From NCBI GenBank assembly GCA_963765565.1, contig CAVXWV010000010.1, forward strand, positions 197,046-261,045: a stretch of DNA of 64,000 nucleotides. The letters are read 5' to 3'. Within the stretch, counting starts at the first letter, position 1, and every line of letters begins with the position of its first letter. The stretch comes from an uncultured Chloroflexia bacterium (GTDB lineage Bacteria; Chloroflexota; Anaerolineae; Anaerolineales; UBA4823). Of the stretch, positions 19,283-46,367 are shown in pieces. The notes below the pieces were generated by a model. It saw only the letters and a list, made by a program, of their open reading frames with translations. It ran no database searches and was not told the origin of the DNA. A program made the translations under genes and the position numbers.

Positions 19283-19373
19283 GGAGAGGTGCCAGAGCGG
19301 CCGAATGGGACGGTCTCGAAAACCGTTGTGGGGCTTGTCCCCACCGTGGGTTCGAATCCCACCCTCTCCGCCA
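19283..19373 (+). tRNA. tRNA-Ser (anticodon CGA), CCA encoded
   Basis: Acceptor GGAGAGG/CCTCTCC. Anticodon stem ACGGT/ACCGT with loop CTCGAAA. Long variable arm GTGGGG-CTTGT-CCCCAC. T-arm GTGGG-TTCGAAT-CCCAC. Discriminator G, then CCA. Confidence 0.9.
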
Positions 19374-19403
19374 AACATACGAAGGCTGCGATCGCTCAGT
19401 GCA

Positions 19404-19441
19404 AGCTGGGCGATTTTGCTTTTAATCGCCCAGCTTTTTTT
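19404..19441 (+). terminator. Rho-independent terminator after tRNA-Ser
   Basis: 12-bp stem agctgggcgatt / aatcgcccagct with an 8-nt loop, followed by a T7 run. Confidence 0.8.
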
Positions 19442-19484
19442 AGTTTTTAATGTATCATGAGATCCTATTTTTATATGAAACCTC

Positions 19485-19515
19485 TTGACTTGGAGTCAAC
19501 TCCAGGTGGTAAACT
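19485..19515 (+). promoter_or_regulatory. Candidate promoter with 19-nt spacer containing a dyad (MerR-type architecture)
   Basis: TTGACT (19485-19490), 19-nt spacer tggagtcaactccaggtgg containing TGGAG-N4-CTCCA, then TAAACT (19510-19515). Lies 90 nt upstream of the aldo-keto reductase ATG. Confidence 0.3.
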
Positions 19516-19605
19516 GATATTTGGAGGTGAAACGATGAGGATTGGGGAAGTGAGTGAAAGAAAATGAGATTTCAGTCGGGTTAATTTCACCAAAGGAGTA
19601 ACTCC

Positions 19606-20589
19606 ATGGAATACGCACGACTTGGCAACACCGGCATGAAAGTTTCCCGTTTCTGCCTCGGCTGTATGGGTTTCGGTGACGCGCAGCGTTGGGTTCACAA
19701 ATGGGTGCTTAACGAGGAAAGCAGCCGTCCAATTATCCAAAAAGCGCTCGAACTGGGTGTCAATTTCTTCGATACTGCCAACGTTTATTCGGTTGGGGTA
19801 AGTGAAGAAATTCTTGGCCGGGCCTTGAGGGATTTCGCCAGGCGAGACGAGGTCGTTATCGCCACCAAGGTGCATGGCAAAATGTTCGAGGGGCCAAATG
19901 GCTCCGGTCTTTCGCGCAAGGCGATCCTCAGCGAGATCAATAAAAGCTTGAAGCGGCTCGAAACCGATTATGTGGACCTGTACATCATCCATCGTTGGGA
20001 TTACGAGACCCCTATCGAGGAGACGATGGAAGCATTGCATGATGTGATCCGGGCTGGCAAAGCGCGTTACATCGGCGCATCCGCCATGTGGGCCTGGCAG
20101 TTCCAGAAGGCGCAGCGCGTTGCCGAAAAGAATCACTGGACTCGCTTCGTCTCCATGCAAAATCACCTGAACCTGATCTACCGCGAAGAAGAGCGCGAGA
20201 TGCTGCCATTTTGCTGCGACGAAAAGATTGGTGTGACCCCCTACAGCCCGCTTGCTTCAGGCAGGTTGACCCGCGACTGGTCATTGGAGGGCACGCTACG
20301 CTCCGAGACCGATCAAATCCAGAAAATGAAATATGACGCATCCACGGAAAGCGACCGTCCCGTTGTGGAACGTGTGGCCGAGCTTGCGGAAAAATACGGG
20401 GCGTCGCGCGCTCATATCGCGCTGGCCTGGCTGCTGCAAAAAGAACCCGTGACAGCGCCTATCATTGGGGCGACCAAGATTTCGCACCTGGAAGAAGCCA
20501 TCGGGACGTTTTTCGTGAAGTTGACCCCGGAAGATGTCACTTACCTGGAAGAACCCTACATCCCGCATCGCATTGTGGGGCATCAGTAA
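19606..20589 (+). CDS. Aldo-keto reductase
   Basis: 327-aa ORF. GLGCMGFG, FFDTANVYS.G.SEEILG, DYVDLYIIHRWD and IGASAMWAWQ are AKR family blocks. Confidence 0.9.
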   Translation: MEYARLGNTGMKVSRFCLGCMGFGDAQRWVHKWVLNEESSRPIIQKALELGVNFFDTANVYSVGVSEEILGRALRDFARRDEVVIATKVHGKMFEGPNGSGLSRKAILSEINKSLKRLETDYVDLYIIHRWDYETPIEETMEALHDVIRAGKARYIGASAMWAWQFQKAQRVAEKNHWTRFVSMQNHLNLIYREEEREMLPFCCDEKIGVTPYSPLASGRLTRDWSLEGTLRSETDQIQKMKYDASTESDRPVVERVAELAEKYGASRAHIALAWLLQKEPVTAPIIGATKISHLEEAIGTFFVKLTPEDVTYLEEPYIPHRIVGHQ

Positions 20590-20707
20590 ATAAACAGGAT
20601 GCCCAGGTAATTCTCCGCGCGTTCCCAGCTATTCAGGAATATCTGGCTGGTCAGACTGCTGGCAGGATGAAACAAGTTAATGACCCATATCGAATAGGAG
20701 ATTAATC

Positions 20708-44257: not shown

Positions 44258-44298
44258 TTGGGCAGATAAACAACGAAAGGATAAACGCGAGGCGCATA

Positions 44299-44592
44299 AT
44301 GAGTGACAAACAAACACTCGACGAAAAACATAACCAGCATCAGTACTACGAAATCCGCCTCAAGGGACACCTGGATGACCGGTGGGCTGACTGGTTTGAG
44401 GGCCTGACCATCACGCTGGAAGAGGACGGCGACACGATTTTAACGGGTCCTGTGATTGACCAGGCCGCGTTGCATGGCTTACTCAAAAAAGTGCGTGATT
44501 TAGGTTTGCCGTTGCTCTCGGTCAGTCCTGTTGAACCCGGACCTCTGACTACACTCGGGACCGGCCAGGCGGATCAGTCAGATGTCAAATAG
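44299..44592 (+). CDS. Conserved ~90-aa protein of unknown function (module copy 3)
   Basis: 97-aa ORF. YEIRLKGHLDDRWADWFEGLTITLEEDGDTILTGPVIDQAALHGLLKKVRDLGLPLLSV. Confidence 0.75.
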   Translation: MSDKQTLDEKHNQHQYYEIRLKGHLDDRWADWFEGLTITLEEDGDTILTGPVIDQAALHGLLKKVRDLGLPLLSVSPVEPGPLTTLGTGQADQSDVK

Positions 44593-44739
44593 TAAATGGA
44601 TATAAGCTACTTGGAAAGGAGATTTGCTTTTGATAACATTTCCAGCTTATTTCAACTCCCGGTAATCGGGTGGCGACCACAATTTTATTCAAGTCCAAAT
44701 TTATAAACCCATCCATATCGTTCAAAAAAGGAGACAAAA

Positions 44740-45192
44740 ATGAATACGATCAAAGGAAGTCCCCTTGGGACAAACAAAGTGACTGCAAGAAATCTGCTAG
44801 ATGTGAGGATAATCCTTGCAGTGTTATGGGTAGCTGAAGTGTTAAGTTCTTTAAACGGGGATACGTACCGCTTAAGTGATTCGGTTGCGTTAAAGTCTTT
44901 ACTTGAGAATACCGGATCTATCAAAGCAACCCCAGAATTATTATTGGTCATGTCGATAATATTTGTGTTTCCCATACTTATGAGTGCCTTAACCCTGATA
45001 TTGAAGTATTCCGTGAGTCGTTGGGCAAACCGCATCATAGGCATACTCTATGCTGTGATTATTCTTGCATTTTGGGTTTTAGGTTTTGTATTGCAATCTG
45101 CTGGTTATGAGTTCGTTTGGTCAACTGCACAACTTGTGTTTGTCTTACTGGTTGTTTGGTACGCCTGGAAATGGACTAACCCTGAAGGTTAA
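44740..45192 (+). CDS. Small membrane protein ending WYAWKW (module copy 3)
   Basis: 150-aa ORF after aaaggag, 4 helices, homologous to 30718..31128. Confidence 0.65.
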   Translation: MNTIKGSPLGTNKVTARNLLDVRIILAVLWVAEVLSSLNGDTYRLSDSVALKSLLENTGSIKATPELLLVMSIIFVFPILMSALTLILKYSVSRWANRIIGILYAVIILAFWVLGFVLQSAGYEFVWSTAQLVFVLLVVWYAWKWTNPEG

Positions 45193-45235
45193 TCCTAATT
45201 TATGATGCCGGTCAAAGGAATTTAAAGAAAATACC

Positions 45236-46258
45236 ATGAAAGCGATTGTATGCACAAAATACGGCACTCCTGACGTTCTTGAACTAAGAGAGGTAGAAAA
45301 ACCTACTCCCAACGAGGATGAAGCACTGGTAAAAGTTCATGCGACATCCTTAAATGCAGCTGACCTTGAAATCCTGAGAGGTACATGGAGTGCGCGTCTC
45401 ACGGGGCCTCTAAGACCAATGCACAATATACTAGGATCTGATATCTCCGGACGCATAGAAGCAGTTGGCAGAAACGTAAAGCATTTTCGGCCAGGTGATG
45501 AGATTTGGGGGGACTTGTCTTTCCCATTGAGCTTTGGTGCTTTTGCCGAGTATGTATGTGTTCCTGAAAATGCATTAAGGCTGAAACCGGCCAGTATGAC
45601 ATTCGAGGAAGCAGCGGCCGTACCTTCAGCGGCAGTTGTCGCCCTGCATAATCTTCGAGGTGTTGGCTCATCTTCGCCCAGTTTTCTTCTATCGGATAGA
45701 GGACAAATTCAGCCAGGAAAAAAGGTTTTGATCAATGGTGCGGGTGGTGGTGTGGGTACCTTTGCAGTGCAGATTGCCAAATCTTTCGGGGCTGAAGTGA
45801 CTGGCGTGGACGGTCCGAGTAAATTGGACATGCTGCGCTCGCTTGGTGCAGACCATGTCCTTGATTACACTCAAGAGGATTTCACCAAAAGTGGGCAGCG
45901 GTATGACTTTATTCTTGATGTTGTCGCATCTCGTTCGATTTTCGATTACAAGCGGGCTTTAAGTCCCAAGGGGATTTTTGTTATGGTCGGAGGTTCTGGG
46001 GCTTCAATTCTTCAAGCGTTTATCCTAGGACCATTGATTTCAATGACCGGGAGTAAGAAAATCGGAATCGTGATGTGGAAACCCAACAATCAAGAAGATT
46101 TGGTGATTTTGGAAGAGCTTTTTGAGGCCGGCAAAGTCGTGCCTGTTATCGGTAGACGTTACCCGTTAAGTGAGATTCCAGAAGCTCTGCGATATCTCGA
46201 AGCAGGACATGCCAAAGGAAAAGTAATCATCAATGTGGAATATAATCACATAACCTGA
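45236..46258 (+). CDS. Medium-chain (zinc-type) alcohol dehydrogenase / quinone oxidoreductase family
   Basis: 340-aa ORF. Nucleotide-binding VLINGAGGGVGTFAVQIAK and the MDR layout, with the C-terminal GHAKGKVII typical of quinone-oxidoreductase-like members. Confidence 0.8.
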   Translation: MKAIVCTKYGTPDVLELREVEKPTPNEDEALVKVHATSLNAADLEILRGTWSARLTGPLRPMHNILGSDISGRIEAVGRNVKHFRPGDEIWGDLSFPLSFGAFAEYVCVPENALRLKPASMTFEEAAAVPSAAVVALHNLRGVGSSSPSFLLSDRGQIQPGKKVLINGAGGGVGTFAVQIAKSFGAEVTGVDGPSKLDMLRSLGADHVLDYTQEDFTKSGQRYDFILDVVASRSIFDYKRALSPKGIFVMVGGSGASILQAFILGPLISMTGSKKIGIVMWKPNNQEDLVILEELFEAGKVVPVIGRRYPLSEIPEALRYLEAGHAKGKVIINVEYNHIT

Positions 46259-46339
46259 CAAAGCAATGATGATCTCCATCAAAAAGCCTGTATCCGTCCT
46301 TAATTTGGACGAGTACAGGCTTTTGTTTATTATTATCCT

Positions 46340-46367
46340 CACCGTGGGTAGGGCACCCACCCTCTCC
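46340..46367 (+). repeat. Degenerate second copy of the tRNA-Ser T-arm/acceptor 3' segment
   Basis: caccgtgggtagggcacccaccctctcc versus tRNA caccgtgggttcgaatcccaccctctcc: 23/28 identical, with all mismatches inside the T-loop. Confidence 0.5.

Follow-up and report, generated by a model that had tools for sequence, protein, structure and literature searches.

The only tRNA gene that ARAGORN calls in the window, a 64,000-nucleotide (nt) stretch of contig CAVXWV010000010.1 from an uncultured Chloroflexia bacterium (Anaerolineales, UBA4823), is an intact tRNA-Ser(CGA). Two further copies of its 3′ end follow downstream, which brings the copies in direct orientation to three inside 27 kb (Table 1). 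Copy 1, within the tRNA gene, and copy 2 bound a segment that we call E1, copies 2 and 3 bound a shorter segment of 5.4 kb, E2, and a stump, E3, begins after copy 3. Regulator genes of the MalT type, oxidoreductase genes and the remnant of a large serine recombinase gene lie among these copies. We read the tRNA gene as the proximal attachment site (attL) of a tandem array of genomic islands. The original prediction had recognized an attL/attR arrangement from the repeats, and relatives in which the same tRNA is joined to post-copy-2 or post-copy-3 sequence support it.

Relatives of the locus were drawn from two sources: contigs with close homologues of a 396-amino-acid (aa) protein encoded left of the tRNA, and a metagenome pattern scan with the 44-nt repeat, its two variable positions given as N. 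The scan returned 43 contigs, all but two with an intact tRNA-Ser(CGA), and the gene was found in 44 related contigs. Homologues of the flanking protein are named only as Anaerolineae or Chloroflexi metagenome-assembled genomes (MAGs). The protein sits in a sugar operon in more distant relatives and is a useful marker only in the contigs L083, L101 and L130. A scan of species-representative genomes via DegV gave a best amino acid identity of 75%, with no shared gene order and no tRNA-Ser nearby.

Copies of the tRNA 3′ end and their junctions in relatives

Copy 2 agrees with copy 1 at 42 of 44 positions and in the same orientation, just as the original prediction stated. The two mismatches fall in the variable-arm loop (19336/40927) and in the T-loop (19354/40945, G to T), and the longest exact run common to both copies is 17 nt. 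A 28-nt core pattern, with up to three mismatches allowed, matches the window at copies 1 and 2 only, where shuffled sequences lead one to expect 0.00 matches. Copy 3, first described as a weaker repeat with its differences in the T-loop, is equally real. It reads CACCGTGGGT + AGGGCAC + CCACCCTCTCC and agrees at 23 of 28 positions, or 25 of 32 in a wider frame; both stem/acceptor blocks are exact, and the seven bases that replace the T-loop are mostly different. Shuffled windows give 0-1 matches at 22/32 or better. Copy 3 is also validated independently, because the 66 nt that begin in its 3′ half match the tRNA 3′ end and trailer of the relative L084 at 97%.

Copies 2 and 3 are not pseudo-tRNA genes, an alternative that the original prediction had named as one that would refute it. 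ARAGORN calls no tRNA at either copy, and the 5′ 45 nt of the tRNA have no similarity at copy 2 or copy 3 and none 5′ of 40919. A relaxed Rfam scan (E up to 1) of 40880-41470, around copy 2, finds no tRNA. Further copies of the tRNA 3′ end were sought across the window, and decayed repeats or trailers before regulator modules 1 and 2; none was found.

The window, L130, L083 and L101 represent four species whose DNA left of the tRNA is ~87-91% identical. L083 and L101 diverge from the window at the first base past ...CTCTCCGC, L130 diverges only after the short trailer, past 19427, and a fifth relative, for which we used the gene list alone, has a different gene set again downstream of the tRNA. 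Because species that are alike upstream differ downstream, the region just past the tRNA is a variable hotspot.

In L083, whose flanking 396/401-aa gene is 87% identical in nucleotide sequence, tRNA-Ser is joined without interruption to the post-copy-2 sequence of the window. Bases 2951-3211 of this contig correspond to window 40919-41179 at 92% identity (94% over 233 nt). L098 and L116 share this E1-free junction (87% over 299 nt), and L094 and L109 have a more diverged one (81%); the five contigs come from different samples and species. Since the tRNA is joined directly to post-copy-2 sequence in these relatives, 19372-40918 is an insertion bounded by the 44-nt repeats. Copy 2 ends in ...CTCCGCAGG with no encoded CCA, as does the L083 tRNA, and the functional tRNA of the window ends in ...CTCCGCCAAAC. 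Because of the E1-free junctions and this shared ending, copy 2 is best read as the earlier tRNA 3′ end, displaced together with its downstream DNA (attR of E1), with a new 3′ end supplied by the insert. At one T-loop position copy 2 carries a T where G is invariant in 44 relatives, which would fit either release from tRNA selection or an origin in an element arm. The first hairpin after the tRNA of the window (19390-19415) matches in type the one that separates tRNA and recombinase gene in relatives (L083 3091-3126 versus window 19390-19425, 86%), and L130, the closest relative, is collinear with the window to 19427 at 88%.

At the left end of E2, the trailer after copy 2 (trailer a) is conserved at 87-94% with the sequence right after the tRNA in L083, L098 and L116. 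At its right end, L084 and L100 have an intact tRNA joined to the trailer that follows copy 3 (trailer b), with 97% identity over 66 nt and 93% over 70 nt, respectively, starting inside copy 3. Their support for the absence of E2 is partial, as a MalT-type gene follows tRNA and trailer b there. A check of relatives for an uninterrupted tRNA-Ser without the segments, suggested with the original prediction, therefore came out favourably on metagenome contigs, though only in part for E2. The trailer-b match ends at ~46431-46436, ahead of the hairpin conserved in relatives, and the E3 layer is therefore truncated in the window.

The relative L095 carries a partial copy 8.6 kb past its tRNA, CACCGTGG-AGAGGCAG-CCCACCCTCTCCGC, which agrees at 25 of 32 positions. 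Bases 9640-9734 of this contig match window 46278-46371 at 78%, the same terminator hairpin precedes both partial copies, and the L095 copy then leads into a trailer type that nine other relatives have immediately past the tRNA. With a conserved element end joined to a host-specific flank, the pattern of an attR, L095 appears to hold an independent 8.6-kb island. Because the non-tRNA loop of copy 3 is common to the L095 copy, it was probably inherited from an element arm rather than produced by random decay, and copy 3 may be read as an element arm (CACCGTGGGTAGGGCA) joined to an older resident tRNA 3′ end (CCCACCCTCTCC). In both copies, the tRNA identity begins at CCCAC with the hairpin upstream. 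The two mismatches in copy 2 and those in the loop of copy 3 fall 5′ of CCCAC as well; the copy 3 discriminator (A instead of G) is the one exception. This confinement agrees with tRNA-like element arms to the 5′ and a crossover at the T-loop or just 3′ of it. We infer the position from the two attR-like sites; copy 2 is tRNA-like over all 44 nt and so uninformative.

Several other contigs carry altered forms of the tRNA or its 3′ end. L099, L118 and L120 have, 20-70 nt past the intact tRNA, a short and degenerate repeat of the acceptor 3′ strand (for example ...CCCTCTCCGCCA), which may be a further small scar of integration or excision. L125 (1528 bp) has a degenerate tRNA-Ser with a diverged 5′ part and the anticodon loop CAA, an encoded CCA and a short hairpin trailer like that of copy 1, and, judged by eye, a DUF433/PIN-like toxin-antitoxin pair after the tRNA; its bases 1-73 are repeated exactly at 948-1020, and it may be a circular or mis-assembled piece. 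L102 (1084 bp) has a tRNA-Ser without its first 24 nt and promoter, apparently through a deletion of ~59 nt relative to L089, with the upstream gene and the trailer otherwise present.

Serine recombinase remnant at the site

The 553-aa recombinase that is intact in L098, together with two homologues, served as tblastn query against the window. The stretch 41000-41450, at first described as holding only decayed short open reading frames (ORFs), contains what is left of a large serine recombinase gene, a C-terminal stump of 74 codons that is convergent with the tRNA repeat. Matches run from 41318 to 41241 (KRIVWVKVNPDYEILFRLMD..., aa 480-505) and then from 41241 to 41113 (...GVEIVLQMSHKTLTRADEYI, up to aa 552). 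Over aa 480-505 and 510/522-552, identity is 46-77% with a joint E of 1e-13 to 7e-10; there is one frameshift at ~41241, and stop codons stand at 41107-41112. The original statement that no recombinase is readable in the window accordingly holds for intact genes and fails for this remnant. In E1, including its left end, there is no mobility gene or recombinase trace.

The intact form is found in L098, where the first gene past the tRNA and trailer encodes a 553-aa protein on the opposite strand, its stop codon 150 nt from the tRNA end and just past the conserved hairpin. The Pfam domains Resolvase, Recombinase and Zn_ribbon_recom identify the protein as a large serine recombinase; the gene beyond it encodes an SNF2-type helicase, at which the contig ends. 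Of 45 related loci, 13 have pieces of the recombinase gene, in each case on the minus strand and 131-223 nt past the tRNA end. The gene is intact in L098 and, to the contig end, in L116. Multi-piece pseudogenes remain in L087, L088 and L115, C-terminal stumps in L083, L084, L089, L095, L119 and L126, and internal fragments in L091 and L111.

About 500 homologues of the recombinase were found, many of them intact at 552-553 aa and, where named, from Chloroflexi or Anaerolineales MAGs. A set of other Anaerolineales loci (1.2 Mb) contains no member of the family and only ~24% matches (E ~1e-4) at two loci. In its Resolvase, Recombinase and zinc-ribbon architecture, and in 3′-end integration with short repeats, the system resembles SCCmec/CcrAB and phage integrases of the phiC31, TP901-1 and Bxb1 type. 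The recombinase is only 24-28% identical to phage serine integrases and has no close relative among the IMG/VR viral contigs, and its matches in the PDB are limited to the catalytic domain. A phage or provirus origin was rejected for want of an att match and of a close recombinase relative in IMG/VR.

Tyrosine recombinases were sought in several ways. Pfam gives no Phage_integrase match in ORFs of at least 80 aa across 15-64 kb and no recombinase in 67 alternative-frame ORFs from unassigned stretches. A heuristic regular expression for the tyrosine-recombinase box-II motif has no match in the six frames of the window or of 48 loci. In the 45 related loci, no tyrosine recombinase is seen by eye among the first ORFs past the tRNA, and none is among the best 25 of 127 Pfam families.

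A near-consensus promoter-like site (TTGACG-16 nt-TATAAT, 11/12) at 41136-41109 on the minus strand is conserved in relatives. Together with a trailer more conserved than coding DNA, it raised the idea of a conserved antisense small RNA in the trailer, which we rejected: the site coincides with the last codons of the recombinase remnant (LTRA[D/E]EYI-stop), which explains its conservation. A relaxed Rfam scan of the trailer found nothing relevant to such an RNA.

Composition, gene content and neighbourhood

Left of the tRNA, composition is uniform, with a GC content of 0.60-0.64 and a tetranucleotide r of at least 0.95. The left 14 kb of E1 have a GC content of 0.546, the right 7.6 kb one of 0.603 with a host-like tetranucleotide r of 0.96, and E2 one of 0.516 with r of 0.61. 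The E1 insert is a mosaic. The low-GC patches that the original prediction had judged by eye are real, and composition is not uniform when computed; the patchiness is not confined to the segments, as the 17.6 kb right of the array are mixed and it runs on to 64 kb. Variable DNA may continue past copy 3. The host-like right part of E1, thought earlier to weaken a single-island model, does not speak against one insertion event, as relatives lack the entire 21.6 kb at the junction.

As predicted, regulator modules occur in both segments, two in E1 and a third, intact one in E2. The three are paralogous (21966-27346, 27533-31128 and 41445-45192; 70-85% nucleotide identity) and combine, in this order, a MalT/LAL-type STAND regulator (AAA_16, TPR_MalT and GerE), a small ORF of ~70 aa (YEIRLKGHL...WFEGLTITLEEDGDTLLTGPV.DQAALHGLLKKVRDLGLPL; no Pfam match) and a DUF4386 or DUF6326 membrane protein. 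Their homology begins ~15 nt before the regulator start codon and reaches into the first part of the membrane-protein gene. Various STAND-type regulators lie downstream of tRNA-Ser(CGA) in L084, L089, L090, L091, L095, L100, L101 and L130; L090, L122 and L088 have the small ORF in inverted orientation, between tRNA and regulator.

Table 1. Features of the tRNA-Ser(CGA) locus; positions are those of the window.
Feature	Coordinates	Strand	Part of array	Basis or remark
Intact tRNA-Ser(CGA)	19283-19373	+		ARAGORN; Rfam RF00005, 54.6 bits
Direct-repeat copy 1	19328-19371	+		Last 44 nt of tRNA-Ser
Island E1	19372-40918		E1	21.5 kb of unique DNA bounded by 44-nt repeats
Short trailer (encoded CCA + ~17 nt) and two overlapping terminator hairpins	19372-19436	+	Left end of E1	Terminator scan
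Aldo/keto reductase	19606-20589		E1	Pfam
Luciferase-like monooxygenase	20708-21592		E1	Pfam
Choloylglycine-hydrolase family remnant, C-terminal third	21639-22082	-	E1	Pfam
MalT-type module 1	21981-27346		E1	Pfam
MalT-type module 2	27548-31128		E1	Pfam
NAD-binding protein	31860-32546		E1	Pfam
DUF2255	32880-33158		E1	Pfam
Aldo/keto reductase 3′ fragment (second reductase gene)	33156-33258		E1	
FGGY kinase pieces	33.3-34.8 kb		E1	Pfam
PD40 protein	35684-36952	-	E1	Pfam
Beta-lactamase-like protein	37149-38351	-	E1	Pfam
SIS/AgaS	38510-39559		E1	Pfam
GatZ, frame broken (split in two)	39595-40873		E1	Pfam
Direct-repeat copy 2	40919-40962	+		Repeat of 19328-19371
Trailer a, with hairpin 41057-41086 and T-run	40963-41096	+	Left end of E2	
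Large serine recombinase remnant, last 74 codons	41113-41318	-		tblastn
E2 cargo, all frames open	41460-46258	+	E2	Pfam
MalT/LAL-type STAND regulator, 887 aa, intact	41460-44123	+	E2	Pfam
Small conserved ORF	44299-44592	+	E2	
DUF6326 membrane protein	44740-45192	+	E2	Pfam
Zinc-type alcohol dehydrogenase	45236-46258	+	E2	Pfam
Terminator hairpin 46281-46324, 15-nt spacer and copy 3	46281-46367	+	Right end of E2	
Copy 3	46340-46367	+		
Trailer b	46368-46436	+	Start of older layer E3	69-nt stump

The two gene remnants noticed originally in E1 are the C-terminal third of a choloylglycine-hydrolase family gene and the 3′ fragment of a second aldo/keto reductase gene. These and the recombinase stump are true truncations, independent of the many broken reading frames. 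In E1, the frames of both regulators, one DUF4386 gene, FGGY and GatZ are broken. Left of the tRNA, the beta-CASP RNase gene (2387-3788) is split by at least two shifts, where 11 relatives have one 465-aa ORF, and the frame of the GNAT gene (18660-19254) is broken, where L130 has it intact at 206 aa; that of the phosphofructokinase gene (3851-4958) is probably broken as well, since its Pfam match begins at profile position 79. The one shift located to the base (~28375, an extra C) is not in a homopolymer. Frameshifts were rejected as evidence of island age or decay, because core genes outside the islands are broken too.

We sought a donor of E1 through its first aldo/keto reductase gene. Window 19475-20605, which comprises this gene and its upstream region with the palindrome TTGACTTGGAGTCAA, is ~91% identical in nucleotides to three other contigs (L127, L128 and L129), in each of which the gene has other neighbours and none of which has it next to a tRNA. 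The reductase homologue of HGW-Chloroflexi-6 shares 91% identity in protein, against only 59% for the DegV of that organism. Either the reductase gene is conserved to an unusual degree or it is a mobile gene.

Carbohydrate and sulfatase genes, DegV, the conserved 396-aa protein and the GNAT gene lie left of the tRNA. In most relatives, tRNA-Ser stands 124 nt after a gene pair for RNase D and beta-CASP RNase (window 1167-3788); the window and the relatives closest to it instead have ~15.5 kb of host-like DNA between the pair and the tRNA, which carries phosphofructokinase, sulfatase, GH38 and DegV genes and the gene for the 396-aa protein. Just downstream of the tRNA, several relatives carry in inverted orientation the SPFH and GNAT genes that occupy window 1-1198. 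Given this spacing and inversion, the upstream side has been rearranged as well. Between the GH38 and xylose-isomerase-like genes, a 29-nt inverted repeat at 15312-15376 (90% complementary, 7-nt loop) is probably a terminator.

After the array, the low-GC stretches 46565-49165 on the minus strand and 49245-50939 encode a PLD-family protein (weakly DrmC-like), an endonuclease/exonuclease/phosphatase-family protein and a vWA-PP2C protein. These genes may belong to an older island layer with its far end outside the detectable repeats. A defence island was considered and rejected, as PADLOC gives only weak PLD/DrmC-like and helicase matches and recognizes no system.

Accretion model, alternatives and known systems

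We propose, with a probability of about 0.72, that the tRNA-Ser(CGA) 3′ end is a recurrent integration site and that the locus is a tandem accretion array built by at least three successive site-specific insertions. Each circular element would have brought a replacement tRNA 3′ end, a trailer, a hairpin and, originally, a convergent recombinase gene; the tRNA would stay intact, while the previous 3′ end and whatever followed it would be pushed downstream as a partial direct repeat. Outward from the tRNA, the layers would then run from the newest, E1 (19372-40918), through E2 (40963-46339) to the E3 stump (46368-46436). The enzyme of E2 and E3 was most likely the ~553-aa large serine recombinase, its gene on the reverse strand ~150 nt after the tRNA. 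Copy 3 would be an attR in which an element arm mimics the 5′ T-stem with a different loop and is joined, at or just 3′ of the T-loop, to CCCACCCTCTCC. The order of events and the role of this recombinase in making the junctions are both inferred. The islands of the window are no longer able to move by themselves and could at best be mobilized in cis by a related recombinase acting in trans.

A further and more tentative proposal, to which we give somewhat less than an even chance, is that the ~553-aa recombinases form an undescribed family, widespread in Anaerolineae and dedicated to the T-loop/3′ end of tRNA-Ser(CGA), whose elements deliver STAND/MalT-type modules, lose the recombinase and stack in tandem.

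Several observations weigh against the accretion array. The window holds no intact recombinase, and no element with an intact recombinase and both ends is among the loci recovered. At 44 nt, the repeat of E1 exceeds the length expected of a serine-recombinase product and could equally well have come from a tyrosine integrase or from a Campbell insertion through RecA. L083 is only E1-free, since it carries a decayed E2-type left end itself, and the comparison contigs in general are short metagenome pieces from other species rather than same-species pairs with and without an island. The trailer after copy 1 is common to L130, so the left end of E1 could predate the split of the lineages, with the insert perhaps remodelled later. 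A MalT-type gene follows the tRNA in relatives at 38-87% identity, and part of E2 could be old, vertically inherited DNA. Finally, the assembly is of uncertain quality, and its many broken reading frames may be due to real decay or to assembly indels.

Each of the other explanations accounts for part of this picture. We consider it unlikely that the segments are classical tyrosine-integrase islands or prophage remnants whose integrases were deleted without trace, with the serine stump left by an unrelated element that landed nearby. An identity block of 44 nt from variable arm to acceptor end is typical of tyrosine-integrase att cores, and the tRNA-targeting elements known so far mostly use such integrases. 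Yet a tyrosine integrase has left no Pfam or motif trace in the window or, among the listings examined, in the 45 related loci, and the serine recombinase is positionally locked to the tRNA, on the same strand and ~150 nt away, in 13 loci. Quite unlikely, too, is a history with no dedicated recombinase at all, in which imported or circularized tRNA-neighbourhood DNA entered by a RecA-dependent single crossover, or a scarred donor replaced the region by homologous recombination. That all trailer types of the window also adjoin the tRNA in other species, that the cargo consists of ordinary Anaerolineae genes found at ~91% nucleotide identity in unrelated contexts, and that the right part of E1 is host-like would follow readily from such exchange. 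It is opposed by copy 3 and its L095 counterpart, whose altered loop leaves only ~12-17 nt of exact tRNA identity, too short for efficient RecA crossover, and by the physical association of the recombinase gene with the tRNA site; moreover, the partial copies would still need a site-specific event in some genome.

An assembly artefact, namely a chimeric join of strains at the conserved tRNA of a metagenome-assembled genome, is highly improbable, even though the contig comes from an uncultured genome with many broken frames, core genes included. A false join at the tRNA would leave one full tRNA and not partial copies of 44 and 28 nt that are preceded by non-tRNA sequence, and the longest exact run between copies 1 and 2 is 17 nt. 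L130 confirms the continuity of left flank, tRNA and short trailer, and L095 independently shows the same architecture. It is barely credible that the repeats are decayed paralogous tRNA-Ser genes from a segmental duplication of tRNA and regulator module, an idea suggested by the three paralogous MalT-type modules and by the MalT-type gene that is the usual neighbour of the tRNA in relatives. Apart from the missing tRNA 5′ similarity and tRNA call at either copy and the empty relaxed Rfam scan around copy 2, the module homology starts ~15 nt before the start codons and not at the repeats, no repeat precedes modules 1 and 2, and the E1 insertion is missing in relatives.

The accretion array shares its general form with classical tRNA islands and prophages, which have an intact tRNA at one end and a 3′-end repeat at the other, within a variable hotspot of patchy composition; Klebsiella Asn-tDNA islands are reportedly an example of tyrosine-integrase islands at tRNA genes. 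Of the features generally used to recognize islands at tRNA genes, we find an intact tRNA, a distal repeat and absence in relatives (partial for E2), but no intact integrase. Unlike classical tyrosine-integrase islands, the only recombinase at this site is of the serine family. To our knowledge, serine-type integrases have rarely been reported at tRNA genes, where tyrosine integrases dominate.

By analogy, the closest described system appears to be that of the ssrA islands of Dehalococcoides (Chloroflexota), which stand in tandem at the transfer-messenger RNA (tmRNA) gene and are separated by 20-bp repeats of its 3′ end (McMurdie et al. 2011, PMC3146451). Their inferred insertion point lies in or near the T-loop, a conserved non-matching motif stands just upstream of each repeat, and the reverse strand next to attL encodes DsiB, a CcrB-like serine recombinase of ~540 aa. 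An integration module is missing from about half of the islands, which were read as cis-mobilizable or fixed (PMC3146451). The array described here likewise consists of tandem islands past a small stable-RNA gene, in the same phylum and with 3′-end repeats separating them. The 553-aa recombinase gene of L098 occupies the DsiB position, beside the tRNA and on the reverse strand, although the window keeps only its last 74 codons, and the likeness to DsiB is one of domains, size and position. An insertion in or near the T-loop and an element-specific motif upstream of the repeat, both suggested by copy 3 and L095, would be further similarities. In contrast to the ssrA islands, the target is tRNA-Ser(CGA) and not the tmRNA gene, the repeats measure 28 and 44 nt instead of 20 bp, and the cargo is regulators and oxidoreductases rather than reductive dehalogenases. 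No DsiA (a small serine recombinase), RecF, ParB or Mom-like genes are seen in the window, and L098 has an SNF2-type helicase.

Cis-mobilizable elements (CIMEs) and accretion arrays are att-flanked, have no functional recombination or transfer genes and place the newest element next to the target gene (concept quoted in PMC3146451). E1 and E2 correspond to this description, being stacked at one attachment site between att repeats and without recombination and transfer genes. They depart from CIMEs in the T-loop substitution of copy 2 and the divergent loop and changed discriminator of copy 3, and these sites may be non-functional.

The elements of the window are fossils, and their direct biological importance is modest. 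A tRNA gene followed by repeats of its 3′ end serves to mark islands in Anaerolineae, which are known almost entirely from metagenomes. The hotspot seems to rely on a serine and not a tyrosine recombinase, much like the Dehalococcoides tmRNA gene; this gives a handle for delimiting horizontally acquired DNA, for explaining the MalT-type triplication and for choosing an intact recombinase, for example the L098 protein, with which to define the att sites. The main interest of the locus is that it exposes a family of serine-recombinase elements, probably tRNA-specific, in Anaerolineae. If the family is indeed dedicated to this site, the ssrA-island mechanism would extend to tRNA genes and to a second class of Chloroflexota, and would offer a serine integrase with a short, well-defined natural attB.

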